64,000 nucleotides of DNA, from the NCBI GenBank assembly GCA_000447245.1, contig AUYT01000001.1, positions 804,106 through 868,105 on the forward strand. Reading direction: 5' to 3'. Made by a program: the position numbers and the translations under genes. The stretch is from a candidate division Zixibacteria bacterium RBG-1. Its GTDB lineage: Bacteria > Zixibacteria > MSB-5A5 > DSPP01 > RBG-1. Positions 21,342-48,575 of this stretch are shown here, piece after piece (position 1 is the first letter of the stretch; each line of letters starts with the position of its first letter). Below the pieces are notes generated by a model. That model did no database searches, had not been told where the DNA came from, and saw only the letters and a list, made by a program, of their open reading frames with translations.

Positions 21342-21384
21342 CGTTCAGTCAATATAAAAAATTTGTTATTTGTGTCAACTGTTT

Positions 21385-21440
21385 GGGTCGGGAGACCCAA
21401 ACCTACACACAATATCCGAGTAGGTCAAGGTCTCCTGACC
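21385..21440. repeat. palindromic hairpin repeat (GGGTCAGGAGACCC family)
   Basis: Two arms (GGGTCGGGAGACCCAAACCTAC / GTAGGTCAAGGTCTCCTGACC) forming a long inverted repeat; copies at 25795, 33932, 37241. Confidence 0.6.
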
Positions 21441-21447
21441 TTGACAT

Positions 21448-21771
21448 TTATTTTTTACGATGAAACAGATGCCGGATGGTTCGTACAATCAATTTTACAT
21501 CCCCCTTCAACCCTAATTCTTTGATTTGATTGATTATTTTTTGCTGGTCTAATTCATCTTTTTGGTAGATTACCTCAATTCTACGGTTGTCTGCATCCAC
21601 TCTGGCTTCTACTACTCCCGAAAGCCCTTCCAGGACTTTTTTGGTTCTATTAGCTCAGAAGCCGCAGGGAATGCCTATTACTTCCAAGGAAAGTTGGTTT
21701 AGATTGTTCTCCTTGGGTGTATCAGAGAGGGCCTTGATTTTTAATCTGGCGAATAGATTTTTCAGTTTCAA
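21448..21771 (-). CDS. HMA (heavy-metal-associated) domain protein with in-frame TGA at the second Cys of the CxxC motif; candidate selenoprotein or pseudogene
   Basis: Hand translation of the minus strand gives ...LEVIGIPCGF[TGA]ANRTKKVLEGLSGVVEARVDADNRRIEVIYQKDELDQQKIINQIKELGLKGDV..., matching the ferredoxin-like HMA fold across the TGA (plus-strand 21655-21657); start uncertain (TTG at 21771 or 21687). Confidence 0.45.
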
Positions 21772-21912
21772 TTTGATGGCTATTTATCTTATTTACGAAT
21801 TGAAACAGGAAATCCGTAACTTCCGGTTTTATATAATACCAAGCCCTAATCTAATTTCATTCACTCTACTCAAAAACCTTTCAACTTTCGGATAAATACT
21901 TCGTAGCATAAA

Positions 21913-22251
21913 TTGAAAATGAAATTTTACCCAAAAAGTATAGCTTTTTTTCAAGCCCTGGGCTTAGCCCTCTATGTGGGCCTGTTTGCCTTTCTGGCGA
22001 TTCATATCGTGCCCTGGTTTGAAAATAATCCAGCCACGCATCCGGCCTTAGGAATCATTCTTTTTCTATTGGCCTTCGTCATTTCAGCCGTCATTTCAGG
22101 GTCGATAATTCTGGGATATCCGATTTTTCTTTTCTTTGAGGGCAAGAGAAAGGATGCCTTAAAAATAGTCTTGTGGAGTGTGGTCTGGCTCCTGCTTTTA
22201 CTAGGGATTTTTGTGGTCATGGCCCTTCTTTCCTTACCCGCTAAGAGCTAG
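21913..22251 (+). CDS. hypothetical small membrane protein
   Basis: 112 aa with three predicted hydrophobic helices. Confidence 0.35.
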   Translation: MKMKFYPKSIAFFQALGLALYVGLFAFLAIHIVPWFENNPATHPALGIILFLLAFVISAVISGSIILGYPIFLFFEGKRKDALKIVLWSVVWLLLLLGIFVVMALLSLPAKS

Positions 22252-22319
22252 AGCTTTCCTTAGTGGTTCAGGCTTACTTTAGATCGAAATCTGTGGCTGG
22301 AATTTTTGGTCTGTTTGAT

Positions 22320-22352
22320 ATAAAAAAATTAGGTCGGGTGTTATCCCGACCT
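22320..22352 (-). terminator. putative rho-independent terminator
   Basis: Hairpin AGGTCGGG-TGTTAT-CCCGACCT (22331-22352) followed on the minus strand by a T-run, downstream of the minus-strand gene 22407..22946. Confidence 0.4.
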
Positions 22353-22406
22353 AACCTAACGGGGGAAAATAGCTCCTTTATATCTTTACCCTAGTTTCAA
22401 TTTTTT

Positions 22407-22946
22407 TTAAGGCGCAGTCTGAACTAAACCCGGACCGCTGAACTCAACCAGCCCGGTGCTTAATTTCTCTTCGGTGTCAAACCTAAGTACAACTTGGTCC
22501 TGGTGGTCCTTCCCTAAATCTTCGGCTTCAATCTCCAGCATCAATCCCACAAAATCGGCGGTATTGGAGACGATAATTTCCGCCATCAGTCTGATTTTGT
22601 CATTTACCTCAAAACCGGTAAGCTCAAATTCGCTGTAGAAGCTGGAATCGTCTGACTTTTGGATATGTCCGGAACCGAAACAGTTTTTCCCATTGGTTCT
22701 ATGACCTGTCACTGTCAGATAAATCGTGCCCATCTGCCCGTTGGTCAGCTGGTTGGACTCAATGGCCACATTGTTGACTTCGGCCCGTGTGGGCCCGCCC
22801 TGGGAATTGAAGATTCTGCTGGTAGAATCACATCCCAGAAGAGCAAAACTTAAAAGCAAAAGAATTCCAAATAATCCGAGGGTTTCGGCTTCGCCAATCC
22901 TGGCGGATTGGGCTTTTATCCTGTAGGGACAAATTGACTTCTGCAC
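22407..22946 (-). CDS. hypothetical lipoprotein
   Basis: 179 aa; hydrophobic leader ending in lipobox-like LLGC. Confidence 0.4.
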   Translation of the reverse strand: MQKSICPYRIKAQSARIGEAETLGLFGILLLLSFALLGCDSTSRIFNSQGGPTRAEVNNVAIESNQLTNGQMGTIYLTVTGHRTNGKNCFGSGHIQKSDDSSFYSEFELTGFEVNDKIRLMAEIIVSNTADFVGLMLEIEAEDLGKDHQDQVVLRFDTEEKLSTGLVEFSGPGLVQTAP

Positions 22947-23188
22947 AAATCTCCTGTCTCTGAGCTTTTTTTGTCCCCCGCTCGTTATAAATATAGCTTA
23001 AAGTCGATTTTTGTCAATATGCAAAATGGAGGCAATGGGCTGATTTTAGCGTAAAATCGGGCTTTTGAGACGGGTCTACGATAGAGTAATTATCTTATTG
23101 ACTTTTCTGGAGGTTTTGATTATATTTTGAACAGGGATGGGTCAGAGGGTTGCAAAAATAGACCCTTAAGGTAAATCCGGGGGGATTT

Positions 23189-25690
23189 ATGAGATGCTGT
23201 AATAGCTACAAATTAACCAGGTGGGTGGCTGTAAGTATACTAATCCTCACCTCCAGCTTTGTTCAAGCGAAATTAAAAAGCGACCAATCTAAATCAGTTC
23301 ATCAGTATCCACAAACTGCAGCCGACCCCCTGACTCAAACCAGGGTTCATAAAATCGGGAATATCTGGCTCTCGATTACGAACTTCGGCCAAATTGGAAG
23401 TGGAGGGAAAACCTATAAAGATGTATGCACCAACCAACCAGCCCCATCTTGTCAGTTTCCGGCTGGCTCGGGGATTGAATATCTTTACATAGGGGCTCTC
23501 TGGATAGGGGCAGTGATGAATGATACGGATACTTTGGTTGCGGTGGGGCATGATGGCTGGCAGAATGTGCAGGAATTTGGTCCTACGTCAACCGGGGCCA
23601 TAGTTTCGAGAACTATCCGACCTGATGGTTATCAACAAGATAACTGTTTTGTTCCCTATTCAGATTCGGCAAAGTCGGAACTGGATTATATTGCCGTGTA
23701 TTATGATACGGTAACAAGACAGGATATCCCCAGCATACCGGAAAGAGATAGACCACTAAATTTAGAGATTACCCAAAAAAGCTACAGCTGGAGTTATGAA
23801 TATGCCAATGATTTTGTACTGTTCGATTATTCAATAAAGAATATTGGGACCAATAAATTAACCAGTGTTTATATAGGATTTTATATTGATTTTGATATCT
23901 ATAATCAGAGTTTTGATGGAGGTGGTTATTTTGATGATATTGCCGGCTTTAAGTTTTCAGTGCCTTCACCCTATGATCCCCGTCTGGAAGATACAGTCAG
24001 CATTGCCTGGGGTGCGGATAATGATGGATTATCTGCTGCGCGAGTGGAAGGAGACGTTTTCCTAGACAATTTTAGCCCTACAGGAGTCCTGGGAACGAGA
24101 GTGCTTCGGTCACCAAATCCTGATTTAAAGCATTCTTTTAACTGGTGGGTTTCTAATGGAAATCCTCAGTTGGATTTTGGACCCTGGACCCAAGCCAATC
24201 TTGCCAGGCGCCCAAACTATTTCGTTCCTAATGGCCAATCCGGAACTCCGGAATCTGATCGGTCTAAATATTTCATCATGAGTAATAATGAATTTGATTA
24301 TGACCAATTGTTTGCTGCTTTACCAGAGATTTGGGAGCGACAGGGTTGGGTAAACCAGACCCAAATTTCACCCGACAATCTGGCAGATATTGCCGACGGT
24401 TTTGATAGCCGCTATCTGTTGTCTTTCGGTCCTTTCGACATTGATTCTGGTGAGGTTCTTCCGTTGACCATCGCTTTAGTGGCCGGAGAAGATTTTCATG
24501 TTAAGCCGACTGATTTTAATTCGTATAGTGCGACTGACAGTGCGGCGGTCTTTAATTTTTACAATAAGCTTGATTTTACCTCTTTAGCCGCCAATGCCCA
24601 TTGGGCTGCCTGTGTCTATGACAATCCGGGGTTTGATACTGACGGGGACGGTTATAGAGGGGAATTCCGAATAATTGCTGGTGATACAATCTATAAATGC
24701 GGGGACGGAGTTCCAGATTTTCAAGGTCCGCCTCCCCCACCTGCTCCCCAATTGAAATTTGAAACCTCCTACGGAACCGTAAAAATCAAATGGAATGGCA
24801 AAACGACTGAAAAGTTTTTTGACCAATTTACCAATCGAAGAGATTTTGAGGGTTACCGAATCTATGGCAGCTGGACTGGAATTTTGGGGGATTTTTTTCT
24901 TCTGGATTCATTTGACAAAATGAATTATAAGTTTTTCTACTGGGATAAAGGGAGAAAAAAATGGGTTTACAAGCTTACCGACTTAAGCCTGGACTCTCTT
25001 GTGACTTTGTTTAAGCCAGACGACCCTTGTGAGGGTGCAAGACCTTGCCCCTTGGAGAGCTTATCTTTTTGTTCTGACCCTGACACTTGTGACGACTGGG
25101 ATGTTGCCAGATGGAATTTATATCATCCTTATATCTATCAGGGAACCCAAATAGAAACTTTAAGGATTGCTCCCAATTTAATCATTACCAGGGGGGATTC
25201 GATTTATTTCGACAGGCAGGACTATAACAGAGGTCTATTACCAATCAAGACTTACAAAGACAGTATCTTGAATGGGAGCATTGGTTCAGATGATGACAGA
25301 TATTATGAGTATGAATATGTAATTGATAACTTGAATCCCAATGAGCCCCTTTATTTCGCAGTTACGACTTTTGATTTCGGAGATCCAATAACACGTTTGA
25401 CCCCTTTGGAAACCAGTGTTCTGGCTAATTCTAAATTAGTTTATCCCCGAGTTTGTCTGGCTAAACCGGGGGATGTTAATGAAGATGGGGAGGTTCTGTT
25501 ATCGGACGTGATAGCTATGATTAATATCCGTTTTACATGGTGGCCCCCTCGTCCCATTCATACCTGCAGAATGGACATGAATGGTGATGGGTGGGAACTA
25601 TTTGCAGATATAATCTATCTGGTTAATTACCTATTTAAAGGTGGCCCAAAGCCACAGGTTGTTGAAGAGTGTTGTTTGGTAGGTAATTGA
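23189..25690 (+). CDS. large secreted hypothetical protein with C-terminal dockerin-like tandem repeats
   Basis: 833 aa; signal peptide; C-terminus GDVNEDGEVLLSDVIAMIN...MDMNGDGWELFADIIYLVNYLFKGGPKP...CCLVGN resembles duplicated dockerin Ca-binding loops (DxNxDGxxxxxD). Confidence 0.55.
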   Translation: MRCCNSYKLTRWVAVSILILTSSFVQAKLKSDQSKSVHQYPQTAADPLTQTRVHKIGNIWLSITNFGQIGSGGKTYKDVCTNQPAPSCQFPAGSGIEYLYIGALWIGAVMNDTDTLVAVGHDGWQNVQEFGPTSTGAIVSRTIRPDGYQQDNCFVPYSDSAKSELDYIAVYYDTVTRQDIPSIPERDRPLNLEITQKSYSWSYEYANDFVLFDYSIKNIGTNKLTSVYIGFYIDFDIYNQSFDGGGYFDDIAGFKFSVPSPYDPRLEDTVSIAWGADNDGLSAARVEGDVFLDNFSPTGVLGTRVLRSPNPDLKHSFNWWVSNGNPQLDFGPWTQANLARRPNYFVPNGQSGTPESDRSKYFIMSNNEFDYDQLFAALPEIWERQGWVNQTQISPDNLADIADGFDSRYLLSFGPFDIDSGEVLPLTIALVAGEDFHVKPTDFNSYSATDSAAVFNFYNKLDFTSLAANAHWAACVYDNPGFDTDGDGYRGEFRIIAGDTIYKCGDGVPDFQGPPPPPAPQLKFETSYGTVKIKWNGKTTEKFFDQFTNRRDFEGYRIYGSWTGILGDFFLLDSFDKMNYKFFYWDKGRKKWVYKLTDLSLDSLVTLFKPDDPCEGARPCPLESLSFCSDPDTCDDWDVARWNLYHPYIYQGTQIETLRIAPNLIITRGDSIYFDRQDYNRGLLPIKTYKDSILNGSIGSDDDRYYEYEYVIDNLNPNEPLYFAVTTFDFGDPITRLTPLETSVLANSKLVYPRVCLAKPGDVNEDGEVLLSDVIAMINIRFTWWPPRPIHTCRMDMNGDGWELFADIIYLVNYLFKGGPKPQVVEECCLVGN

Positions 25691-25794
25691 ATCTCTGAAA
25701 GCTACCCTGTAACGTCCCGTTTTACACTTAACAGTATCCCGTAGGGACACGGGACGTACGCCCTATGTAAAATAGGGGGTTACAGATATATTTT

Positions 25795-25850
25795 GGGTCA
25801 GGAGACCCAAATCTACCCAGGAATCCAGGGTAGGTCGAGGTCTCCTGACC
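25795..25850. repeat. palindromic hairpin repeat (GGGTCAGGAGACCC family)
   Basis: GGGTCAGGAGACCCAAATCTACCC...GGGTAGGTCGAGGTCTCCTGACC; a further inverted-repeat region (ACGTCCCG / CGGGACGT) lies at 25700-25790. Confidence 0.6.
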
Positions 25851-25888
25851 TCGACTGAAGCAAAAATGAAATTCCCTGAACTTTCTAC

Positions 25889-25917
25889 TTGACAAATAAT
25901 TAGCCGATAATTAAATT
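25889..25917 (+). promoter_or_regulatory. putative sigma70-type promoter (TTGACA-17-TAAATT) of the Rrf2-suf operon
   Basis: Consensus -35 hexamer and 17-nt spacer, about 55 nt upstream of the Rrf2 start. Confidence 0.4.
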
Positions 25918-25970
25918 AGTTACAGGGAAACCTAACAAATCTGTCGGGTTTTCGTATATGTAGTGTAGAT

Positions 25971-26420
25971 ATGAGGATAACTAAACAAGAAGAGTATGGG
26001 TTGCGCTGTATTTTGCAGTTAGCCCAGAATGGGACTGACTCTAAAACTACGGTGGAAATAGCGGCTAAAGAGGGGCTGTCCATGGATTACGTGACCAAAC
26101 TCTTAATCTTGTTAAGAAGACATAAGATTGTGGAGTCGGTCCGGGGTGTTAAAGGCGGTTATCGACTGGCAAGAAATCCCGAGAAAATAACTGTCGGGCA
26201 GGTGATGCGGGCTTTGGGTTGGTCGGTTCTGGATGAATCTTTATGCCGACATTATCCGGGGAAACTGGATAGCTGCATCCATCTGCAGGGCTGTGGTATC
26301 AGACCAATCTGGATGAAAGCGGCTAAGATGATGTATAAGCTTTTGGATTCAACTACCTTGGCAGGATTGTTAAAAGAAGAAGGGGTTATCACGCAAGAAT
26401 TGGAAAGCAAAGAAGCATAG
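25971..26420 (+). CDS. Rrf2 family transcriptional regulator (IscR/SufR-like)
   Basis: 149 aa; N-terminal wHTH typical of Rrf2 (ITKQEEYGLRCILQLA, GVKGGYRLAR); first gene of the suf operon. Confidence 0.8.
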   Translation: MRITKQEEYGLRCILQLAQNGTDSKTTVEIAAKEGLSMDYVTKLLILLRRHKIVESVRGVKGGYRLARNPEKITVGQVMRALGWSVLDESLCRHYPGKLDSCIHLQGCGIRPIWMKAAKMMYKLLDSTTLAGLLKEEGVITQELESKEA

Positions 26421-26539
26421 TATATTTTTTGTTGCAATAGTGGACTTTTTTGTCAGGTTTCGTATAATGAAAGATAAAAAGTTTCAATAGGTTACACTAT
26501 CCCGTAGGGAAAAGTTAAATTAAGAAATAACGAGGAGAA

Positions 26540-27310
26540 ATGAGCAAGGAACCAATTCTAAAAATTGAAGACCTGCATGTGGCAGTTGAAGGAAAAGAGA
26601 TTTTAAAAGGGTTAAACTTAACCATAAACAAAGGGGAAGTGCATGCCTTAATGGGCCCAAATGGCTCCGGGAAATCCACTCTGGCCTATGTGCTAATGGG
26701 GCATCCGAAATATCAGGTTACATCTGGTAGGGTGTGGTATAAAGGAGAAGAGATATTAGCTCTAAAACCGAATGAGAGAGCCAAGAAAGGTTTATTTTTG
26801 GCGTTTCAGTATCCAACACCGATTCCGGGTGTGACGGTAATGAACTTTTTACGGGCGGCTTTGAAAGCAGTCCAAGGGAAAGAGATTCCAGCCAAAGATT
26901 TTTTGAAACTTTTAAAAGAGAAAATGAAATTTTTGGAAATTTCGGATCAGTTTTCTAACCGCTATATCAATGATGGTTTCTCCGGCGGGGAAAAGAAAAG
27001 GCATGAGATTTTGCAGATGGCGATTTTGGAGCCGGAGATGGCGATTTTAGATGAAACTGATTCAGGTTTGGATATTGATGCTTTGAAAACTGTGGCCAAA
27101 GGAGTCAATCGTTTAATCGGACCCAATCTGGGTATTTTATTGATCACTCATTATCAGAGAATGCTGAATTACATTAAACCGGATTTCGTGCATGTCTTAG
27201 TAGATGGAAAAATTGTCCAGTCCGGTGGAGATAAATTAGCTTTGAAATTAGAAGAGTTGGGGTATGATTGGACCGTGGAGAAAACAGAAACACTTTCAGT
27301 TGAGAAATGA
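26540..27310 (+). CDS. sufC: Fe-S cluster assembly ATPase SufC
   Basis: 256 aa; Walker [13 protein letters not shown] signature FSGGEKKR; ends with TGA stop. Confidence 0.9.
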
Positions 27311-27345
27311 TTGTCTGGATATGGAGGAAATTAAATAAGGAGTGT

Positions 27346-27433
27346 TCCCTCTCCTTTAAGGAGAGGGTTAGGGAGAGGTCAGTAGTAAAATATAAAAACT
27401 GACCCCTCCTTTATCCTCCCCTCTAGGGGAGGA
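27346..27433. repeat. palindromic repeat unit (CCCTCTCC..GGAGAGGG family)
   Basis: CCCTCTCCTTTAAGGAGAGGG and TCCTCCCCTCTAGGGGAGGAG hairpins between sufC and sufB. Confidence 0.55.
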
Positions 27434-27467
27434 GATGAAAAATAAAATTAAGAAAGGAAGTAATTTT

Positions 27468-28883
27468 ATGGCAGAAAAAGAATTTACAGATGTTCAGGAC
27501 ATAGGCAAAGATTATAAATACGGATTCAAAGACCCGGAGAAACATGTTTTTAAATCCAAAAGGGGCTTAACTCGTGAAGTTGTAGAGGAAATCTCCTGGA
27601 TGAAAAAAGAACCGGAGTGGATGCGGAATTTCCGCTTAAGAGCGCTGGATATCTTTTTGAAAAAACCGATGCCTACTTGGGGAAGTCCGATTTTAGCCGA
27701 GATTGATTTCGACAACATTTTTTACTACATCAAACCCATGGAAAATCAGGGAAAATCTTGGGATGACGTTCCCGAAGATATCAAAAGGACCTATGAAAAA
27801 TTGGGGATTCCGGAAGCGGAAAGAAAATTTTTGGGCGGGGTGTCAGCTCAGTATGAATCGGAAGTGGTTTATCACAGCTTAAGAAAAGACTTGCAAGCCC
27901 AAGGAGTGATTTTCTTGGATATGGACTCAGGCTTGAGAGAATATCCAGATATTGTCAAAAAATATTTTGCAACTGTAATTCCAGCAGGTGATAACAAATT
28001 TTCGGCTTTAAATTCAGCGGTTTGGTCCGGGGGTTCATTTATCTATGTTCCAAAAGGAGTGGATGTCAAGATTCCTCTGCAGGCCTATTTCAGAATCAAT
28101 GCTGAAAATATGGGGCAGTTTGAGAGAACTTTGATTATTGCGGATGAAGGTTCATCGGTCCATTATATCGAAGGATGCACAGCACCAGTTTACTCCACCG
28201 ATTCATTGCATTCAGCGGTAGTGGAGCTGATTGCACTCAAAGGTTCAAAATTGCGATACACCACTATTCAGAACTGGTCTAAAAATGTTTACAACTTGGT
28301 CACCAAAAGAGGAATTGCTCACGAGGATGCCACGATTCGATGGGTGGATGGAAATTTAGGCAGCAAATTGACTATGAAATATCCTTCGGTTTATATGGTG
28401 GGTAAAGGTGCTTACGGTGAAGTTTTATCCATCGCTTTTGCCGGAAAAGGGCAGCATCAGGATGCCGGGGCTAAGATGGTGCACGTGGCGCCAGGTACTT
28501 CATCTACCATTGTTTCCAAATCTATTTCCAAAGATTCCGGCAGAACTTCTTATCGGGGTCTGGTTAAGGTTTACAAGGGTGCTACCGGGGTGAAATCTAA
28601 TGTCAGATGTGATGCTCTTTTGATGGATGAAGAGTCCCGTTCAGACACTTATCCTACAATGGAGATTGATGAAGAAAATGTCAATGTCGGTCACGAAGCC
28701 ACAGTTTCCAAAGTAGGGGAAGAGCAGCTGTTCTATCTAACTTCTAGAGGAATTTCAGAGCAGGAAGCAACTTTGATGATTGTGAATGGATTCATTGAGC
28801 CTTTTACCAAAGAGTTGCCTCTGGAATATGCGGTGGAGCTGAATCGTCTGATACAATTGGAGATGGAAGGTTCGGTAGGATAG
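27468..28883 (+). CDS. sufB: Fe-S cluster assembly protein SufB
   Basis: ORF 27435..28883; likely start at ATG 27468 (AAGGAAG RBS); strong SufB-family similarity throughout. Confidence 0.85.
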
Positions 28884-28892
28884 TAGAATAAA

Positions 28893-30206: not shown

Positions 30207-30207
30207 T

Positions 30208-30300
30208 GTCATCCTGAATGAAAGTGAAGGATCTGATTTTTTCAAAAGAGAGATTCTTCGCTACAGTTTACCCTGAGCCTGTCGAAGGGCTCAGAATGAC
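30208..30300. mobile_element. MITE-like element (GTCATCCTGAA...CTCAGAATGAC)
   Basis: Begins 2 nt after the sufD stop and ends 11 nt before the Rieske gene start; same family as 20631-20720. Confidence 0.55.
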
Positions 30301-30311
30301 AAATAAAAATT

Positions 30312-30620
30312 ATGGAATACAAAGTGGCTGAAATTGGAGAAGTTACTCACGGAGGGATGAAAATCGCGAAGGCTGGGGAGAAAAATTTGATGTTATGCAA
30401 CGTGGCTGGGGAATATTATTGTGTGGATAATGTTTGCACCCATGATGGAGGAACTCTAAGTGAAGGTGAATTAATCGATGATGAAATTGAATGTCCCCGG
30501 CATGGGGCTCATTTTAATGTTAAAACTGGAGCCGTGATGACTCTACCTGCAATTTTCCCAATTGCTACGTATTCGGTGAAAGTGGAAGGGAAAGATATAA
30601 AAGTCATTATTAAAGAGTAA
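30312..30620 (+). CDS. Rieske [2Fe-2S] ferredoxin-like protein
   Basis: 102 aa; CTHDGGTLSEG (CxH) and CPRHGAHF (CxxH) Rieske ligands. Confidence 0.8.
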   Translation: MEYKVAEIGEVTHGGMKIAKAGEKNLMLCNVAGEYYCVDNVCTHDGGTLSEGELIDDEIECPRHGAHFNVKTGAVMTLPAIFPIATYSVKVEGKDIKVIIKE

Positions 30621-30624
30621 AAGT

Positions 30625-31884
30625 ATGCTAAACGTTCAAAAAATCAGAGAAGATTTTCCAATATTAAATCAAAAAATTCACGACAAGCCCTTGGCTTATC
30701 TGGACAATGGCTCCACTTCCCAGAAGCCTAAAGTGGTAATTGATGCCATTACTAATTATTACAACTGGTATAATTCCAATATCCATCGGGGGATTCATAC
30801 TTTGAGTGAGAAAGCCACCGAAGCTTACGAAAATGTTAGAAAAATCGTGGCTGATTTTATAAAAGCTCCTGACCCAGAAGAAATAATTTTTACCCGCAAT
30901 GCTACCGAAGCTGTAAATTTGGTAGCTTATGCCTGGGGGAGAAAAAATATTTCTACCGGTGATGAGATTCTTTTAACTGAAATGGAACATCACTCTAATT
31001 TAATCCCCTGGCAGATTTTGGCTAAGGAGAAGAAAGCGGTCTTGCGGTTTATTCCTATCACTCAAAATTTCACTCTGGACTTAGATAAAATTGAAGATTT
31101 GATAACTTCTAAAACCAAGCTGGTAGCTGTGACCCAGATGTCCAATGTTTTGGGAACTATAAATCCGGTTAAAAAAATAGCTGGGTTGGCTCATAAGGCC
31201 AAGGCCTTATTCTTGATAGATGGAGCCCAGGGTGTGCCTCATTCTGGTATCGATGTAGCCAATGTCAACTGTGACTTTTTAGCATTCACTGCTCACAAAA
31301 TGTTAGGACCAACTGGCGTGGGAGTTCTATACGGTAAGAAAAAATTGTTAGAAGAGATGGACCCCTTTATTGCTGGGGGAAGTATGATTTTAGAGGTTTG
31401 GCAAGATCGAGCTACTTGGAACAAAGTCCCTTACAAATATGAAGCCGGAACTCCCAATATTGCAGACGTCATTGCCTTTGGTGAAGCGATAAAATATTTG
31501 CAAAATATCGGCATGGAAAATGTCAGAAACCATGAGAAAGAGTTGACCGCTTACGCTTTGAAAAAACTTTGTGAAACTGAAGACTTAACTATCTATGGTC
31601 CTAAAAATCCGGAACTTCAAGGAGGAATAATCTCTTTTAATTTCTCCGCCAAAGGCGGATCCGACTCTGTCGGAATAGATATACATCCACATGATGTTGG
31701 TACTATCGTGGATCAAGAAGGAGTAGCAATAAGAGCTGGGCATCACTGCTGTCAGCCTTTGATGAGAAAATTAGGGATTCCGGGAACTGCGCGAGCCAGC
31801 TTTTATATTTACAATACTAAAGAAGAAATTGACCAGTTGACTTTTGCTCTGGGAAAAGTCAAAGAGGTGTTTGCACGTTTATAG
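30625..31884 (+). CDS. sufS: cysteine desulfurase SufS
   Basis: 419 aa; PLP-lysine region TAHKMLGPTGVG and active-site Cys region GHHCCQPLMRK. Confidence 0.9.
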   Translation: MLNVQKIREDFPILNQKIHDKPLAYLDNGSTSQKPKVVIDAITNYYNWYNSNIHRGIHTLSEKATEAYENVRKIVADFIKAPDPEEIIFTRNATEAVNLVAYAWGRKNISTGDEILLTEMEHHSNLIPWQILAKEKKAVLRFIPITQNFTLDLDKIEDLITSKTKLVAVTQMSNVLGTINPVKKIAGLAHKAKALFLIDGAQGVPHSGIDVANVNCDFLAFTAHKMLGPTGVGVLYGKKKLLEEMDPFIAGGSMILEVWQDRATWNKVPYKYEAGTPNIADVIAFGEAIKYLQNIGMENVRNHEKELTAYALKKLCETEDLTIYGPKNPELQGGIISFNFSAKGGSDSVGIDIHPHDVGTIVDQEGVAIRAGHHCCQPLMRKLGIPGTARASFYIYNTKEEIDQLTFALGKVKEVFARL

Positions 31885-31989
31885 CACGAATAAATAGTCG
31901 GGTGCAGGGACCCGACTTCTACCCGGCTTTGGGTAGCACTGGGTCCCTGAACCCAGTGCTAAGCTCATATAAAGCGAGTGAAATAAATT

Positions 31990-32454
31990 ATGTCAGCCAT
32001 TGAAGATTTATATCGAGAAATAATTTTGGACCATTATTCTTCTCCCCGTAATCGAGGAGAATTACCGGCTCCAGCTTTAAAAATTGAAGGGGCAAATCCG
32101 CTTTGTGGGGATGAGCTGGTTTTATACATTGAAGAAAAAGATGGCCAAATCAAGCAGGTAAAAATAAATACCAAAGGTTGCTCTATCTCACAGGCCTCGG
32201 CTTCTTTGATGACCGAAGCTATCGTTGGGAAAAAAATCGAAGAAATTCAGAAAATTATTGAGAATTTTAAAGATATGATGCTAAAAGATGGTTCATTTAC
32301 TCCTACAGTTGATTTGGGGGATTTGGAGGTTCTGGAAGGGGTCAAAAAATATCCGGTCAGGATTAAATGTGCTTTGTTGGCTTGGAATACTTTGATAGAG
32401 GGGCTGAAAGCATTACAGAATCACAAAAAGCCAGAGCCGGTGGTGATGGAGTGA
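31990..32454 (+). CDS. sufU: SufU/IscU-like Fe-S scaffold / sulfur acceptor
   Basis: 154 aa; conserved Cys in NPLCGDE and KGCSISQASAS typical of SufU. Confidence 0.8.
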   Translation: MSAIEDLYREIILDHYSSPRNRGELPAPALKIEGANPLCGDELVLYIEEKDGQIKQVKINTKGCSISQASASLMTEAIVGKKIEEIQKIIENFKDMMLKDGSFTPTVDLGDLEVLEGVKKYPVRIKCALLAWNTLIEGLKALQNHKKPEPVVME

Positions 32455-32469
32455 ATATTAAAAGATATT

Positions 32470-32518
32470 TACCTCTCCCCATCCCTCCCCTAAAAGGGGA
32501 GGGTAAGGGAGGGGTTAG
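32470..32518. repeat. palindromic repeat unit (CCCTCCCCTAAAAGGGGAGGG family)
   Basis: TCCCTCCCCTAAAAGGGGAGGGTAAGGGAGGGGTTAGT between sufU and the DUF59 gene. Confidence 0.5.
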
Positions 32519-32534
32519 TTAAGAAGGTGAAATT

Positions 32535-32876
32535 ATGACGGAAAACCTGAATAATCAAAATCAACAGTCGAATAATCTGGACGCGGAGACTTTGAAAGAG
32601 CAATTGAAACAGATTGTGGACCCGGAGATTAATATCAATATCGTGGATCTAGGTTTGGTTTACAAAGTTGAAAATAAAGACGGGGATATTTTAATCGATA
32701 TGACTCTGACCTCACCGGTCTGCCCTTTTGGGGAAGTGGTGAAATCAGAAACTATCAGAATTTTAAAAGAGCTTCCCGGTGTCAAAGAAGTTCATATAAA
32801 TATCGTCTGGGACCCTCCTTGGAATCCCTGGGAGATGGCATCCGAGGAAGCAAAATTACAATTAGGTTTGTTATGA
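32535..32876 (+). CDS. DUF59/MIP18-family Fe-S assembly protein (SufT-like)
   Basis: 113 aa; motif IVDLGLVY...TLTSPVCPFG characteristic of the DUF59 family. Confidence 0.75.
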   Translation: MTENLNNQNQQSNNLDAETLKEQLKQIVDPEININIVDLGLVYKVENKDGDILIDMTLTSPVCPFGEVVKSETIRILKELPGVKEVHINIVWDPPWNPWEMASEEAKLQLGLL

Positions 32877-32895
32877 ATTTAAAGAGAGGAGTGAT

Positions 32896-33255
32896 ATGAT
32901 AACTTTAACCAAAATTGCAGCAGAAGAATTGAAAAGAGTCATCAAAGAAAATAATTTGCCGGAGAGTTCGGCTTTAAGAGTAGAAGTGAGAGAGGATGGA
33001 TGTTCTTCGCATGGAACTCCTTATTCTTACTACATTAAACTGGAAGAAAGCCCAGCCACTTCTCAGGATAATGTCTTTGAATCAGAAGGGGTAAAAGTTT
33101 TGGTTGCCCAGGCCAGCTTGCAATATATTCAGGGTCTTAGTCTGGATTTTGTGGAGTCGATCCACGGACGGGGATTTGCCTTTACCAATCCAAATGCCAA
33201 GCGCTCCTGCGGGTGCGGGCACTCATTTAGCGTAGACGAAGAAAAAGAGAATTAA
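32896..33255 (+). CDS. A-type Fe-S cluster carrier (HesB/IscA/SufA family)
   Basis: 119 aa; C-terminal SCGCGHSF signature and upstream Cys (DGCSSHG). Confidence 0.85.
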   Translation: MITLTKIAAEELKRVIKENNLPESSALRVEVREDGCSSHGTPYSYYIKLEESPATSQDNVFESEGVKVLVAQASLQYIQGLSLDFVESIHGRGFAFTNPNAKRSCGCGHSFSVDEEKEN

Positions 33256-33267
33256 CCTCTATTTTTT

Positions 33268-33367
33268 GTCATTCTGAGCCCCGACCCCTACGGGATGGTG
33301 TAACCATAAATCGGGGCGAAGAATCTCATCATTCAAAAAAAAGATCCTTCACTTCGTTCAGGATGAC
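33268..33367. mobile_element. MITE-like element (inverted orientation of the GTCATCCTGAA family)
   Basis: GTCATTCTGAGCCCCGACCCCTACGGGATGGTGTAACCAT...TTCAGGATGAC; first 45 nt identical to the copy at 34849. Confidence 0.6.
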
Positions 33368-33410
33368 CCAATTATCTTTGGAGTGGCAGAGTTAAAATAA
33401 GGGAGGAGAA

Positions 33411-33914
33411 ATGGATGTAGCCAGAATTCAGGAGTTATATAAATATAATGCCTGGGCCAATGGCCAGGTTTTTGAATCAGTCGCAAAATTAACCCCGGAG
33501 CAATTTAATAAGGATTTGGCTACCAGTTATCGTTCGGTCAAAGGTACTCTGGTTCATATCGTGGGAGCGGAATGGATCTGGCTCAGAAGGTGGCTGGGAA
33601 CTTCTCCCAAAGCTCTTTGGGACCCGGCCGAATTTTCTTCGGTAGAACAAATCAAAAACCGTTGGGAAGAGGTGGAACGGGAAAGAAAAGAATTCCTCTC
33701 CGACCTAACCGAAGACTCTCTCAGGAAACCTTTGGCTTATACCAATATCAAAGGGCAACCTTTTAGTTATCCTTTGTGGCAGGCCTTGCAGCATCTGGTT
33801 AATCATTCCACTTATCACCGGGGACAGGTTACGACCCTGCTCAGGCAATTGGGTGCCCAGCCAAAGGGGACAGACCTTCTGGCATATTACGATGCTAAAT
33901 TCGGGCAAAGATAA
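33411..33914 (+). CDS. DinB/YfiT-like family protein
   Basis: 167 aa; N-terminal YKYNAWANGQVF and His residues of the DinB_2 four-helix-bundle family. Confidence 0.65.
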   Translation: MDVARIQELYKYNAWANGQVFESVAKLTPEQFNKDLATSYRSVKGTLVHIVGAEWIWLRRWLGTSPKALWDPAEFSSVEQIKNRWEEVERERKEFLSDLTEDSLRKPLAYTNIKGQPFSYPLWQALQHLVNHSTYHRGQVTTLLRQLGAQPKGTDLLAYYDAKFGQR

Positions 33915-33931
33915 CTTGAATGCCAGGCCTT

Positions 33932-33992
33932 GGGTCAGGAGACCCAAGGCTACCCAAGAAATGCATATAGGGTAGGGTCGGGTCTCCTGACC
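33932..33992. repeat. palindromic hairpin repeat (GGGTCAGGAGACCC family)
   Basis: GGGTCAGGAGACCCAAGGCTACCC...GGGTAGGGTCGGGTCTCCTGACC. Confidence 0.6.
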
Positions 33993-34008
33993 TAACCAAA
34001 ATAAAATT

Positions 34009-34833
34009 TTATTTCACCAAAAGATTTTTTTCTTGGTAAATTTCTAATCTTCTATCTTTGAAAATATGATTCTTGGAATTTACCTGTTTAAGGTTGGCTA
34101 ATTTGGGATTAATCTCTGCCACTTGTAGTTCTTCTTTGTCAGCCGAAGCTTGAGCTAAGATATTTCCGTCCGGGTCCACTATCATACTGCGACCGGCAAA
34201 TTTTAATTTTCTTTCCACCCCTACACGGTCACTAGTGACAATAAAAATTCTATTTACAATAGCGTGTCCAGGTAAAGCTCTGAAAGATAATTTCGGGACA
34301 ATTAAATTAGAAGGATGAGCGATAATCTGTGCCCCCTTCAAAGCTAAAATTCTCCAGGCCTCCGGAAATCTCCAGTCAAAACAAACTAAAATTCCCACCT
34401 TGACTCCGTTTATCCTGAAAATCGGCAATCCTAAATTCCCCGGCTCAAATATATCCTTTTCTTTGTAGAATAAATGCAGTTTGCGGTAAGTTCCGATATA
34501 ACCTTTCGGTCCGACCAAAACTGCTGAATTGTAAAGTTTTTTCCCTTTTATGGTGAGTTTTGTCGAACCATCTTTTTCATTTATTCCGGCTACAATGAAA
34601 CATTTTTTCTGCTTGGCCAGAGAAATCAGAAATTGAGAGGATTTGCCGTGTGGTATCTCTTCAGCAAATTTAAAAGCTTCTTTCGTATCTCTGAAATTGT
34701 AACCGGAATTGCAAAGTTCCGGCAAGACTAAAAGGTTTAAATTTTTAATCCGGGAAAGACTTTTTTCAATCTTTTTTAAATTGTAATCTATTTTCCCTAA
34801 TTTAGGGTCGAACTGAAAAAAAGCGACTTTCAT
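34009..34833 (-). CDS. carbon-nitrogen hydrolase family protein (nitrilase superfamily)
   Basis: 274 aa; Glu (VLPELC), Lys and Cys (ILVCFDWRFPE) catalytic-triad contexts. Confidence 0.8.
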   Translation of the reverse strand: MKVAFFQFDPKLGKIDYNLKKIEKSLSRIKNLNLLVLPELCNSGYNFRDTKEAFKFAEEIPHGKSSQFLISLAKQKKCFIVAGINEKDGSTKLTIKGKKLYNSAVLVGPKGYIGTYRKLHLFYKEKDIFEPGNLGLPIFRINGVKVGILVCFDWRFPEAWRILALKGAQIIAHPSNLIVPKLSFRALPGHAIVNRIFIVTSDRVGVERKLKFAGRSMIVDPDGNILAQASADKEELQVAEINPKLANLKQVNSKNHIFKDRRLEIYQEKNLLVK

Positions 34834-34848
34834 CTTCTCATTTTATGT

Positions 34849-34933
34849 GTCATTCTGAGCCCCGACCCCTACGGGATGGTGTAACCATGAATCGAGGTCA
34901 GCATGACTTATATGGCACTTCGTTCAGGATGAC
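34849..34933. mobile_element. MITE-like element (GTCATCCTGAA family, inverted orientation)
   Basis: Direct repeat of the 33268-33367 copy; the two flank the DinB and CN-hydrolase genes. Confidence 0.6.
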
Positions 34934-34944
34934 AAATACAAAAC

Positions 34945-36672
34945 TTATTCCTTCAGTCTGACATAAATCACCTGACCGTCGAAAATGGTAGCTTCGACCT
35001 GGGTTTTTAAAATCTCTTCCGGGGGTAAAGTAAAAATGTCCTTGCTCAAAACCACCATGTCCGCCAATTTTCCCTCTTCCAAAGACCCTTTCAAACTATC
35101 CTGAAATTCGGCATAAGCGGCCCCGATGGTGTAGCCCTTGAGGGCTTCCATAAGTGAAATACATTCCCTCCGGTACCAGCCCGCACCCGGCTCCGGATTT
35201 TGGGGGTCTTTTCTGGTGACCGCGGCGTATAAACCAATCAAAGGATTTAAGGGTTCCACCGGCCAGTCGGTCCCGAATGCCAGATGGGCACCATTCACTA
35301 AGAGTGATTTCCAGGCATAAGCTCCTTGGCATCTTTTCTTCCCCAGCCTATCTTCGGCCCATCTCTTGTCGGAGGTGCAATGGGTTGGCTGCATGGAGGC
35401 AACCACTCCCAGCTTTCCAAACAGGGGAATATCCTCTTCCCGCAGCACCTGGGCATGCTCAATGCGGTGCCGGGAATTTTTTCTTTTGTTGGTTAAGAGA
35501 GCTTTCTCAAAGGCCTTCAAAACCAGGTAATTTCCTTTGTCACCGATGGCATGAAAGCAGATCTGAAAACCCATTTTGTCCGCTTTGGTTATCAAAGAAC
35601 CGAGCTCCTCCTGCTTATACTGGGGAATTCCCATGGTGCTGGTGTCATCTGAATACGGTTCGAATAAATAAGCAGTGCGGGAGCCCAGAGTCCCGTCTAC
35701 GTATCCTTTGAAGGGACCCAATTTCAGCAAATTTGGTCTTTCAGTGAAGGCGGACTTCAAGCTGTCTATTTTCTCCGGAGTTTTTATCCATTCAAACGGC
35801 AGCCACTCCGAAATTCTGACGGTCAGATTCCCCTGCTCGGCCAGGGTGTTATAAATCGGCAGAACATTCAAATCAGAATTATCCTGAATGCTGGTGATGC
35901 CGTTTTCTTTGGCTTCCGCGATGGCGGTTTGGATGGCTTTCTGCATATCCGCTTCTGTGGGTGGAGGGATAAGGTTAGCCACTAAATCAGCGGCGTTTTC
36001 TTTTAAAATTCCGGTGGGATTTCCCATAGAATCCCGCACAATCTCTCCCCCTTCCGGGTCGGGAATATCCTTATCAATTTTGGCTTCCAGCAAAGCTAGA
36101 CTGTTGACCCAGGCCACGTGTCCGTCGATTCTGGTCAGATAGACCGGATGCAGCGAAGTGAGTTGGTTTAAAAACTTTTTATCAGGCCACTGGCTTTTGT
36201 TAAAAAGAGTATGGTCCCAGCCCCGGCCTACAATCCAGCTTCCTTCGGGGGTTTCCTTTATTTTTTGTTTGAGTTTGGCAGTGATTTCGGCTTTGGTTTT
36301 GCAGCCGGCCAGATTGACTCGCATAAGGGATAAACCCCCGGAGAGAAAATGCAGATGGGCATCGTTGAAACCGGGAATGACTGGCTTCCCGCGCAGGTCA
36401 ATCATCTCCGTTTTTCCCTTCTCAACATAATCCATCACCTGCACGTTGTTTCCCACAAACAGGATTCTGTTTCCCTTTACCGCGATGGCATGAGCTTGGG
36501 TGTTGTGTTCGTCCAGAGTAATTATTTTTCCATTTAACAGAACCAGGTCCGCTCGTGGTGAATCCTCGCGATGAAGCGCTTTCTGATTCTGTTTTTGAGA
36601 GAAGGTTACCCCGGCCAAAGATAGGATTGTGACAAGAAATAATAAGCCCAGGATTTTTCGGTTTGGTCTCAT
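34945..36672 (-). CDS. amidohydrolase-family metal-dependent hydrolase (Amidohydro_3-like), exported
   Basis: 575 aa; signal peptide; metal-binding motif FNDAHLHFLSGG and C-terminal HxxGD-type motifs. Confidence 0.75.
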   Translation of the reverse strand: MRPNRKILGLLFLVTILSLAGVTFSQKQNQKALHREDSPRADLVLLNGKIITLDEHNTQAHAIAVKGNRILFVGNNVQVMDYVEKGKTEMIDLRGKPVIPGFNDAHLHFLSGGLSLMRVNLAGCKTKAEITAKLKQKIKETPEGSWIVGRGWDHTLFNKSQWPDKKFLNQLTSLHPVYLTRIDGHVAWVNSLALLEAKIDKDIPDPEGGEIVRDSMGNPTGILKENAADLVANLIPPPTEADMQKAIQTAIAEAKENGITSIQDNSDLNVLPIYNTLAEQGNLTVRISEWLPFEWIKTPEKIDSLKSAFTERPNLLKLGPFKGYVDGTLGSRTAYLFEPYSDDTSTMGIPQYKQEELGSLITKADKMGFQICFHAIGDKGNYLVLKAFEKALLTNKRKNSRHRIEHAQVLREEDIPLFGKLGVVASMQPTHCTSDKRWAEDRLGKKRCQGAYAWKSLLVNGAHLAFGTDWPVEPLNPLIGLYAAVTRKDPQNPEPGAGWYRRECISLMEALKGYTIGAAYAEFQDSLKGSLEEGKLADMVVLSKDIFTLPPEEILKTQVEATIFDGQVIYVRLKE

Positions 36673-36921
36673 AGCGCTCCTTTCATGGTGAGCTTAAGCC
36701 GAACCATGAGTTTTTTTAATATACGAAATTTTCGCGGCAATGCAAGCTCAAGCCATTCACCAAATCCTTTCAAAGTTGGCGATACATCACAAAATTTTGG
36801 TGATTACCAGCTGATACAAATGTGATTTACAAAATCTATTTGTCTGATTAGTTGACTGGTGGAATGTGAAATTGTTTTGGGAGCTTTGAAAAAAGTATAA
36901 CGAGATAAAAAACAAAATCAG

Positions 36922-36968
36922 ACCCTCTTTTCCCTCTCCTCTTAGGGGAGGGTAAGGGTGGGGTAAGT
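36922..36968. repeat. palindromic repeat unit (CCCTCTCC family)
   Basis: CCCTCTTTTCCCTCTCCTCTTAGGGGAGGGTAAGGGTGGGGTAAGT. Confidence 0.5.
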
Positions 36969-36994
36969 TAATCAAAAAAATGAAAACATAAACT

Positions 36995-37306
36995 ATGCCC
37001 AGAAAAATAAGCAAAGTCAGGGGGGAGCACGGCTTAAATTTTTTTATTAGCTACCAGCTGAAAAAAAGGTTACAAACCCTGGCCCAAAAATATGACACTT
37101 CTCTGGCGGAGATTGTCCGGACCCTGCTAAAAATCGGGATACCGGTTCTAGAAGGATATAAGCAAGCTCAAGAGCAGGCGGAGAAAGAGCTTGATAAATT
37201 GACCCATGTCCCTACAGGATTCAGTCGGAAAAAAATCTCTGGGTCAGGAGACCCAGAGCTGCCCCAGGGTAGGGTCAGGTCTCCTGACCTGACCAATGAA
37301 ATTTAA
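36995..37306 (+). CDS. small ribbon-helix-helix-like protein (putative DNA-binding)
   Basis: 103 aa; the segment LKKRLQTLAQKYDTSLAEIVRTLLKIGI resembles CopG/Arc RHH; the C-terminal 20 codons run through a hairpin repeat, so the true stop is uncertain. Confidence 0.35.
   Translation: MPRKISKVRGEHGLNFFISYQLKKRLQTLAQKYDTSLAEIVRTLLKIGIPVLEGYKQAQEQAEKELDKLTHVPTGFSRKKISGSGDPELPQGRVRSPDLTNEI
37241..37290. repeat. palindromic hairpin repeat (GGGTCAGGAGACCC family)
   Basis: GGGTCAGGAGACCCAGAGCTGCCCCAGGGTAGGGTCAGGTCTCCTGACC. Confidence 0.6.
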
Positions 37307-37317
37307 GCAGGGATAAA

Positions 37318-37911
37318 ATGAGAAAAATCAAATATCAGAATTGGATTTATGAGGTCATAAACGAGACCTCACCCCGGCCCTCTCCTACAGGAGAGGGAGA
37401 TTTTTCCCCTCCCCTAGTAGGGGAGGGGGATGGTTCGATAAACTCACCACAAAGGGGTGGGGTCAGTGCAGTTGACCCAGAAATTGAGAAACAGGTCAGA
37501 AAAGCTCTCGCCAGATTATCTGAAAAAGAAAAAATCTTTATCGAAGAATTTTACTATCAGGGGAGAAGCTATAAAGAAATTTCTGCGATTTTGAAAATCA
37601 ACCTCAAACAGAGCGAATATCTGCACCGCCGGGCGACATTCAAGCTGAGAAATCTTCTGGCTGGTTTTGTAGAAAGAAAATTCAAGATAAAAGTTGACCG
37701 AGTCAGCCCTGAAAAATCAGTGAAACACCGTAAATCTGTTTTTGCCTGTATCATCTGCCAGAATCCTAAGCAAAAAGAAATTGAGAAAGTTATCAGCTCC
37801 AAAAAAGATTTCCAGACCTGGGGTGTGGTTTTAAAAAAATTAAAAAACGAATTTAAGTTGCATATCAAAGCCCCTCAAATTCTTATAGGGCATATGAAGC
37901 ATAGAAGTTAA
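37318..37911 (+). CDS. sigma-70 region 4-like HTH protein with repeat-encoded N-terminal Pro/Gly-rich linker
   Basis: 197 aa; LARLSEKEKIFIEEFYYQGRSYKEISAILKINLKQSEYLHRRATFKLRNLL resembles sigma-70/ECF region 4; residues 17-45 are encoded by the palindromic repeat at 37367-37462. Confidence 0.4.
   Translation: MRKIKYQNWIYEVINETSPRPSPTGEGDFSPPLVGEGDGSINSPQRGGVSAVDPEIEKQVRKALARLSEKEKIFIEEFYYQGRSYKEISAILKINLKQSEYLHRRATFKLRNLLAGFVERKFKIKVDRVSPEKSVKHRKSVFACIICQNPKQKEIEKVISSKKDFQTWGVVLKKLKNEFKLHIKAPQILIGHMKHRS
37367..37462. repeat. palindromic repeat units (CCCTCTCC..GGAGAGGG, CCCCTCCCCTAGTAGGGGAGGGGG) lying inside ORF 37318..37911
   Basis: Same unit types as the intergenic copies; here in frame within a coding sequence. 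Confidence 0.5.
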
Positions 37912-38026
37912 AAAAGATTAGAGGCCATTTTAGTGGTAGCCGCAGACTTTAGTCTGCGCTTTAAGATTTCGCAACCTAAAGGTTGCGGCTACCAGGTTTT
38001 TTTATTAATCCTTAATCCCTGTTTTA

Positions 38027-48528: not shown

Positions 48529-48575
48529 GTCGGGAAGAGCTCGCGACCTACGAAATTGCAAGATTTGGCGATTCT

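Follow-up and report, generated by a model that had tools for sequence, protein, structure and literature searches.

Systems of repetitive extragenic palindromic (REP) sequences and REP-associated tyrosine transposases (RAYTs) have been studied almost only in Gammaproteobacteria, with each lineage carrying a REP sequence of its own. The palindromic repeats described here lie in a 64,000-nucleotide stretch of the genome of candidate division Zixibacteria bacterium RBG-1 (contig AUYT01000001.1, positions 804,106 to 868,105; the whole of this stretch is called the window below). Five copies were found in the window, and they are very probably REPs of the GTAG superfamily that are arranged as inverted head-to-head doublets, resembling REP doublets forming hairpins (REPINs) or bacterial interspersed mosaic elements (BIME-1), and that would act as RAYT substrates. 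The evidence established here consisted of the architecture of the copies, the covariation of their stems, their spread across phyla, and, at related loci, a physical association with RAYT genes.

A GT[AG]G head followed by a hairpin is the standard REP layout (Nunvar 2010, PMC2817692; Di Nocera 2013, PMC3733652). In REPIN-RAYT systems (Bertels and Rainey 2011, PMC3116915) and in the BIME-1 or Y-Z REP pairs of Escherichia coli (Nunvar et al. 2010, PMC2817692) REPs likewise occur as inverted pairs with a short spacer in extragenic positions; as here, the pair can form one long hairpin and RAYT genes are flanked by the same REPs. The two halves of a doublet are often of different stem types, here the TTTGGGTC-type and GTCRAGGTC-type units, much as the Y and Z units differ in E. 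coli. The well-studied REPIN-RAYT systems belong to groups 2 and 3, come from Gammaproteobacteria and have lineage-specific REPs, whereas the hairpin top of the elements described here was the same in more than ten phyla.

The GTAG-tagged REP superfamily (Di Nocera et al. 2013, PMC3733652) shares with these elements a short palindrome with GTAG at its foot, and has already been reported in Proteobacteria, Cyanobacteria, Chloroflexi and the Planctomycetes-Verrucomicrobia-Chlamydiae (PVC) group; most of the phyla seen here were then unsampled. The GGTCTCCTGACC core was in none of its 24 GTAG families in the accessible portions of the text and supplements of PMC3733652. The TnpA-Y1 proteins of IS200/IS605 are related HUH/Y1 enzymes that recognize folded single-stranded DNA hairpins and leave no target-site duplication. 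A RAYT gene, in contrast to IS200/IS605, is as a rule single-copy and not mobile as a unit (PMC5581495, 10.1101/2021.07.10.451892); REP-RAYT systems also make use of a GTAG guide, and the short elements far outnumber the gene.

Architecture of the five doublets

The original prediction, made from the sequence alone, had described four long hairpin repeats of REP-like organization. All four were recovered: the 14-mer GGGTCAGGAGACCC, with two or fewer mismatches, had eight half-sites in the window, two inverted ones in each of copies 1 to 4, against a chance expectation of 0.25 +/- 0.52 (0 of 100 shuffles reached eight). No singleton half-site was found elsewhere in the 64-kb window, also by a looser 12-mer search. 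A fifth, diverged doublet (copy 5) had been missed. Coordinates are collected in Table 1.

All five copies (5/5) were doublets in which the REPs were inverted around a short spacer, with a core-to-core spacing of 24-36 nt. Read on its own strand, each half consisted of GTAG, 0-1 nt, an 8-9 bp stem and a TCCT loop, the heads facing inward, so that the REP-like organization was borne out. The GTAG head was present in seven of the eight half-sites. The predicted CTACCC...GGGTAG centre was intact in copies 2 and 3 but degenerate in copy 1 (CTACAC/GAGTAG) and copy 4 (CTGCCC). Copy 2 was essentially perfect, and the hairpin top of copy 5 was altered relative to the family core; copy 5 may be a decayed copy or a member of a sister sub-family.

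The inverted-repeat arms were 26-27 nt long with 81-85% complementarity. Each arm was also palindromic by itself and capable of a local hairpin, a point that had been overlooked. Every copy had two possible folds, namely one long hairpin or three adjacent hairpins: a left one (xxxGGGTC-AGGA-GACCCxxx), a central one (CTACCC...GGGTAG) and a right one (xxxxxGGTC-TCCT-GACCxxxxx). As RNA, the copies folded at -34 to -44 kcal/mol, far more stably than shuffled sequences (z about -5.5 to -6), and the long and three-hairpin forms were nearly equal in energy. On the plus strand, the minimum free energy structure of copies 1-3 was the long hairpin; the three-hairpin fold made up 94% of the ensemble for copy 4. 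As single-stranded DNA, four of the five copies preferred the local hairpins and copy 3 alone preferred the long hairpin, while isolated halves folded at -9.4 and -10.4 kcal/mol (z about -4.9). Compensatory stem changes were visible within the window: TTTGGGTC/GACCCAAA versus TCTGGGTC/GACCCAGA, and GTCAAGGTC/GACCTTGAC versus GTCGAGGTC/GACCTCGAC.

The five doublets shared one orientation, with the TTTGGGTC-type unit on the left and the GTCRAGGTC-type unit on the right. The cumulative GC skew climbed steadily from 4 kb on (with a dip at 8-16 kb) and was climbing across all five copies; five are too few for a test of replication-strand bias.

Table 1. Units of the five REP doublets and two protein-coding genes in the window (positions are those of the window).
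Feature	Positions	Strand	Stem-loop or description	Head
Copy 1, REP doublet	21382-21445		Left unit is a minus-strand REP, right unit a plus-strand REP	
Copy 1, left unit	21382-21401		TTTGGGTC-GGGA-GACCCAAA	CTAC 21403-21406
Copy 1, right unit	21424-21445		GTCAAGGTC-TCCT-GACCTTGAC	GTAG 21420-21423
Copy 2, REP doublet	25792-25855		Central stem CTACCC/GGGTAG	
Copy 2, left unit	25792-25811		TTTGGGTC-AGGA-GACCCAAA	CTAC 25813-25816
Copy 2, right unit	25834-25855		GTCGAGGTC-TCCT-GACCTCGAC	GTAG 25830-25833
SufS-like protein	30625-31881		Identical to EQB63160.1 / OGC86372.1 of Zixibacteria bacterium RBG-1	
Copy 5, diverged REP doublet	31896-31959		Same layout: hairpin, CTACCC...GGGTAG, hairpin	
Copy 5, left unit			AGTCGGGT-GCAGGG-ACCCGACT	CTAC 31919-31922
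Copy 5, right unit			CACTGGGT-CCCTGA-ACCCAGTG	GTAG 31933-31936
Copy 3, REP doublet	33928-33997			
Copy 3, left unit	33928-33949		CCTTGGGTC-AGGA-GACCCAAGG	CTAC 33950-33953
Copy 3, right unit	33976-33997		GGTCGGGTC-TCCT-GACCTAACC; two mismatches in right stem	GTAG 33972-33975
Conserved small gene, 103 aa	36995-37306	+	Last ~22 codons and stop codon from copy 4	
Copy 4, REP doublet	37237-37294			
Copy 4, left unit	37237-37258		CTCTGGGTC-AGGA-GACCCAGAG	CTGC (variant) 37259-37262
Copy 4, right unit	37273-37294		GGTCAGGTC-TCCT-GACCTGACC	GTAG 37269-37272

Occurrence across phyla and covariation of the stems

A species-representative genome collection, whose returns did not include the RBG-1 genome, was scanned with the exact pattern GGTCAGGAGACC-N15-45-GGTCTCCTGACC. 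This two-arm core pattern occurred at 98 genome loci from more than ten phyla. With 10 metagenome loci in addition, the copies were not confined to the window. The labels of the metagenome-assembled genomes (MAGs) included: Planctomycetota, Chloroflexota, Nitrospirota, Bacteroidota, Desulfobacterota/Deltaproteobacteria, Kiritimatiellia, Actinomycetota, Cyanobacteria, Armatimonadota, Gammaproteobacteria, Candidatus Schekmanbacteria, and Candidatus Stahlbacteria. Many genomes had several copies, some with tandem arrays, and other MAGs had 8-14 exact-core copies among the fetched loci. The neighbouring genes were mutually unrelated, both in the window and across the 98 loci. Only the hairpin top, GGTC-TCCT-GACC, was fixed across loci; the lower stems were lineage-specific yet locally complementary. 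The claim that the repeats have a sequence of their own consequently had to be given up for the hairpin top, which is common to more than ten phyla.

Covariation was measured in 148 distinct units aligned in a fixed register, using the seven stem pairs that lay outside the constraint of the search pattern. Compensatory changes were abundant: all seven pairs showed double-sided changes, and 75.9% of the unconstrained stem cells were paired, versus 23-44% when the partner was slid. The covariation score was 0.338, compared with 0.126 +/- 0.009 for shuffled sets (0 of 500 reached it) and 0.10-0.18 for slid controls. Left and right stems were identical in only 10 of 113 doublets, and the outer flanks paired less with each other (54%) than locally (62-66%); pairing between the inner heads reached 75-83%. 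Since few doublets were symmetric and outer-flank pairing was weak, the constraint appears to act on each REP hairpin and on the head region, and not on the 24-nt long hairpin. Thus the stable long hairpin of the original prediction stood as a fold that beats shuffled sequences, but covariation favoured two local hairpins. Among 296 distinct units, 107 had a GTAG head no more than 18 nt 5' of the core, with positions peaking sharply at 9 nt, compared with 5 in the mirror control; for the GT[AG]G head, the figures were 165/296 and 50/296, respectively.

These data also bear on the idea that the elements are miniature inverted-repeat transposable elements (MITEs), integron attC sites, or operators for a local factor, e.g., one encoded by the adjacent Rrf2 or sigma-factor genes. 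Such identities would fit the inverted-repeat shape, the intergenic position and the placement of copies 2 and 4 upstream of regulator genes, but they are extremely improbable. No flanking direct repeat longer than 4 nt was found around the copies (i.e., no target-site duplication), nor were attC R''/R' core sites (RYYYAAC / GTTRRRY), and the neighbouring genes had nothing in common either in the window or across the 98 loci. The conserved apex with covarying lower stems points to a folded single strand and not to a duplex operator. Separately, the cyanobacterial small dispersed repeats and the highly iterated palindrome HIP1 were considered and rejected: no GCGATCGC sites occurred in the 64 kb, and the source is a member of the Zixibacteria.

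RAYT genes and the proposed mechanism

Clustering of the open reading frames (ORFs) from the fetched motif-selected loci revealed one family of ~180-200 aa in 10 loci from three phyla (L001, L005, L007, L024, L027, L029, L032, L053, L056, and L084), with half-sites close on both sides of the gene. Together with L107, L114-L117 and L118-L120, the element flanked a RAYT gene in 18 related loci, which agrees with the suggestion that the repeats are target sites for a REP-associated transposase. The family has an HUH motif and a Y..NP motif, with HuH, W, Y, NP and S invariant (H55, H57, W111, Y132, P137, S152). Two members scored 100.2 and 108.3 bits against NCBIfam NF047646 (REP-associated tyrosine transposase; cutoff 80), and a third, more divergent member scored 64.6 bits. 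The sole Protein Data Bank match of the family was E. coli TnpA-REP (4ER8). The family comprised 2,735 clusters at E<=0.001, members of which JGI and NCBI often name RayT or REP-associated tyrosine transposase.

L107 came from a metagenome scan for a pattern particular to the window sub-family; in this locus a RAYT gene lay between pyrD- and pyrK-like genes and was flanked by doublets whose left unit was identical to that of the window (TTTGGGTC-AGGA-GACCCAAA-CTACCC). As a guard against motif-sampling bias, seven RAYT loci were picked by protein similarity alone (L114-L117 and L118-L120): four were L107-like (42-74% identity) and three were of a ~181-aa type (24-27% identity). All seven (7/7) contained GT(A/T)G-headed hairpins topped by GGTC-TCC(T/C)-GACC. 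The pyrD-RAYT-pyrK synteny was common to L107 and L114 (74% protein identity), and L007 had two adjacent RAYT copies. The fetched RAYT genes sat between housekeeping genes.

Additionally, BIME-like tandem arrays adjoined RAYT genes: L005 (5291-5611) had four doublets repeating every 80 bp, and L117 (3806-3889) and L119 (1283-1408) had runs of single units with 36-38-bp periods. In the Planctomycetota-type loci L118-L120, a short conserved motif, GACCGAAGGTCTCC (complement GGAGACCTTCGGTC), which has GGTCTCC in common with the REP core, recurred beside the REPs at either side of the RAYT gene.

The REP was also part of the RAYT coding sequence in some members. In the L107-like group it formed the RAYT C-terminus (...YFGSGDPKLP), core sites lay inside the RAYT ORFs of L115, L116 and L117, with in-frame REP insertions between HuH and Y, and GSGRSPDLP-type inserts were present in P0035, P0039 and P0045. 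As a further observation, GSGDPKLP derived from one unit type and GSGRSPDLP from the other (L107, L114-L117; P0024, P0035, P0039, P0045, P0089), and these peptides made up the RAYT C-terminus, N-terminal extensions and internal inserts; a GSGDP(E/D/Q)LP tail also occurred on homologs of the small protein encoded at 36995-37306.

In-frame REP insertions inside tnpA-REP are a unique feature of RAYT subclass 2.4 (Quentin et al. 2018, PMC6006769), which corresponds to group 4 of Bertels and is patchy over many phyla (PMC6006769; PMC5581495). Other likenesses to subclass 2.4 were the patchy distribution over many phyla, the "canonical long" GT[AG]G-headed REPs, the long HuH-to-Y spacing, and the YxxNNP-type Tyr motif in the L107-like sub-clade. 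The differences were that Zixibacteria are not covered in PMC6006769 and that the ~181-aa sub-clade (THLH / YLHENP) departs in motif detail; placement of this sub-clade in subclass 2.4 rather than 2.6 is uncertain. For group 4 RAYTs, Bertels et al. (2017, PMC5581495) found only a weak association with abundant 16-mers in the flanks. The REP sequence of the elements described here was not found in the accessible portions of the text and supplements of PMC6006769.

A mechanism can be proposed along the lines of these relatives. In single-stranded DNA (e.g., the lagging-strand template), each half would fold into a hairpin, and a RAYT (TnpA-REP), which is a domesticated HUH/Y1 transposase, would use this hairpin as its substrate. 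The single-stranded GTAG head, together with the loop and upper stem GGTC-TCCT-GACC, would direct strand-specific recognition and position the cleavage. The lower stem would need only to pair, and could drift by compensatory change. The RAYT clade would be patchily present in many phyla, retaining the same hairpin top throughout. As by-products, stable hairpins would be left at the 3' ends of transcripts and, in one case, a C-terminal peptide on a protein. Recognition and cleavage of the element by RAYT are proposed by analogy with TnpA-REP of E. coli, Stenotrophomonas and Marinomonas; activity in RBG-1 itself and any effect at the RNA level are likewise inferred.

The TnpA-REP structure 4ER8, from the 2012 work of Messing, reportedly documents strand-specific binding of a folded single strand. 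In perfect-palindrome REPs, the loop and the GTAG head determine recognition and cleavage, only one strand is bound, stem mismatches are harmful, and the sequence of the bottom stem is free (Corneloup et al. 2021, PMC8266576). The conservation pattern found here, with head, loop and top stem fixed and the lower stem covarying, is the one predicted by the TnpA-REP precedent.

The 12-nt apex was identical across more than ten phyla and across RAYTs of 22-27% identity. Tentatively, the apex GGTC-TCCT-GACC and the GT(A/T)G head might be the fixed recognition code of one ancient pan-bacterial RAYT clade, a proposal in which we place limited confidence. If true, it would imply a pan-bacterial REP-RAYT pairing, contrary to the picture of lineage-specific REP/RAYT co-evolution; it would allow the features that a RAYT reads in its substrate to be tested directly; and the translated REP (GSGDPxLP / GSGRSPDLP) would repeatedly supply host proteins, and the RAYT itself, with peptide tails or inserts.

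Several points weigh against the reading of the window copies as REP doublets served by a RAYT. The 64-kb window encoded no RAYT gene, and none was found on the RBG-1 contig (2,122,767 bp) among the best 120 of the 2,735 family members, so the copies could be orphans; the search for a co-occurring RAYT succeeded in the 18 related loci but in neither of these places. REPs typically exceed 100 copies per genome; five copies were counted in the window, all inside 16 kb. No clean empty site or insertion polymorphism was found in the compared relatives, the absence of copy 2 from one of them being part of a 2.8-kb replacement. Pfam Y1_Tnp matched only some of the family, the divergent members. The match of the cognate RAYT clade to subclass 2.4 / group 4 is one of published descriptions and motifs, not of a joint phylogeny.

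The first of these points raises the possibility that the RBG-1 copies are orphan, decaying REPINs with no current mechanism, whose cognate RAYT was once held or received and has since been lost. Degenerate heads, loops or stems in copies 1, 3, 4 and 5 would agree with this, and REPIN decay after loss of the RAYT has been described by Bertels and Rainey (10.1101/2021.07.10.451892). It is nevertheless unlikely, though not negligibly so: the copy 1 hairpins were identical in a relative of ~85% identity despite diverged spacer and flanks, which points to continuing constraint or homogenization; copy 2 had hardly decayed at all; and a RAYT of RBG-1 could easily be missed among matches listing the best 120 of 2,735.

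Under the preferred reading, as RAYT-associated GTAG REPs, the elements belong to a known kind of system in a phylum for which no earlier description of it was found, and are no new kind of element. Searches of the literature with the 12-mer core returned only unrelated primer or eukaryotic matches, the core was absent from the accessible text and supplements of the main REP surveys, and no match was found for Zixibacteria with REPs. What goes beyond the routine, and is worth targeted study, is the identity of the apex across such distant phyla and RAYTs, which was not found stated in the searchable literature. An invariant tip running from Zixibacteria to Planctomycetota, Chloroflexota, Nitrospirota and Bacteroidota with one RAYT clade is a natural experiment separating bases that are read from bases that are merely paired, and GGTCAGGAGACC-N(15-45)-GGTCTCCTGACC provides a simple DNA signature for finding such systems in metagenomes. 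For RBG-1, the reading explains the five intergenic palindromes and an unusual protein C-terminus, and probably other repeats as well; for annotation, it warns that such protein tails are repeat-derived.

Gene context, close relatives and other palindromes

All five copies lay 2-101 nt from the 3' end of a gene, in keeping with what the original prediction had stated for its four, and were either extragenic or overlapped solely a gene's 3' end. Copy 1 was 2 nt past the stop codon of a minus-strand 50-aa ORF (21448-21600), and is counted as adjacent to a 3' end because this ORF was accepted; its stop codon was conserved in the ~85%-identical relative. Copy 1 also lay just upstream of a promoter-like site, 21378-21351(-), of an AhpC-like gene. 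Copy 2 was 101 nt after an 833-aa ORF and 115 nt before an Rrf2 gene, and copy 3 separated two convergent genes, DinB ending 13 nt and a CN-hydrolase gene 11 nt away from it. Copy 5 was in a suf cluster, with the sufS-like gene ending 11 nt ahead of it and a nifU-like gene starting 28 nt beyond it. Copy 4 ended 23 nt before a sigma-70-r4 gene (37318-37911).

Copy 4 was translated as the C-terminal tail (SGSGDPELPQGRVRSPDLT...) of the product of ORF 36995-37306, as had been noted for the copy at 37241. By comparison with 16 homologs this ORF is a real conserved gene: its core was invariant to about residue 64, and the homologs were 71-116 aa long with variable tails. Several homologs from other lineages also ended in ...KISGSGDP(E/D/Q)LP, the translated REP. 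Pfam gave no match for the product, which looks ribbon-helix-helix-like as judged by eye.

The 3'-end positions could mean that the elements are primarily RNA signals, as intrinsic terminators or 3'-end stabilizers, with the transposase link incidental. The RNA hairpins are very stable (-34 to -44 kcal/mol, z about -6), the terminator scan flagged two outer hairpins as terminator-like, and E. coli REPs are reported as regulators in 3' untranslated regions (10.64898/2026.03.23.713779). Yet no copy had a U-tract directly behind a G+C-rich hairpin when read in the sense direction of the upstream gene. T-runs were present at two copies, copy 1 (plus strand) and copy 4 (minus strand), each antisense to the adjoining upstream gene, and copies 2, 3 and 5 had none. 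No Rfam family matched any copy at the gathering threshold or at E<=1. Moreover, a terminator needs no fixed 12-nt top, no GTAG head and no identity over more than ten phyla beside unrelated genes, and it would not flank and interrupt RAYT genes. A primary RNA role is accordingly improbable, and an RNA-level effect is best seen as secondary and compatible with the REP reading. A CsrA-type AGGA-loop RNA sponge was also considered and rejected; nothing supported it, and the palindrome puts AGGA and UCCU loops on both transcripts.

Among the metagenome contigs, L099-L101, L109 and L111 were 100% identical to the window, and L108 was identical across copy 4 and ORF 36995-37306. The ~85%-identical relative (L104/L106) kept copy 1 at the orthologous site with both hairpins identical; the spacer had a 7-nt indel and substitutions, and the flanks had diverged. 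Because the copy 1 hairpins were kept in this relative and REP-derived tails were common to homologs of the small gene, persistence has been long: the window copies are old residents at gene 3' ends, not fresh insertions.

The same relative (L106) had neither copy 2 nor the 833-aa ORF (23189-25690), for whose product Pfam gave no match. At the L106 site corresponding to 23047-25880, ~150 nt of unrelated sequence was found, marking a strain- or species-specific 2.8-kb segment. All 74 differences from L108, a close relative, fell at 37575-37887, in the 3' half of the sigma-70-r4 gene, and the ~870 nt before them were identical, a pattern suggestive of a recombination tract or else of a hypervariable C-terminal region.

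Inverted repeats with no relation to the REP family occurred at two places in the window. At 32471-32515, directly following the nifU-like gene, was a C/G-rich palindrome, ACCTCTCCCCATCCCTCCCCT / AGGGGAGGGTAAGGGAGGGGT; at 48769-48910, around 48.8 kb, nested A+T-rich inverted repeats formed a cluster. A second GTAG-headed palindrome family, with heads facing outward, was represented at 37934-37994 and 48575-48659. The copy at 37934-37994 lay between convergent genes and was followed by a T-run; it had a sub-threshold Rfam match to VrrA (33.5 bits vs 50) that is probably due to chance. In this second family, an outer stem, (T)GTAGCNGC / GCNGCTAC(A), enclosed two inner hairpins: GCAGAC-TTTA-GTCTGC with GCAACC-TAAA-GGTTGC, and GGTGCGA-TTCA-TCGCACC with GGTCGGA-TAAA-TCCGACC.

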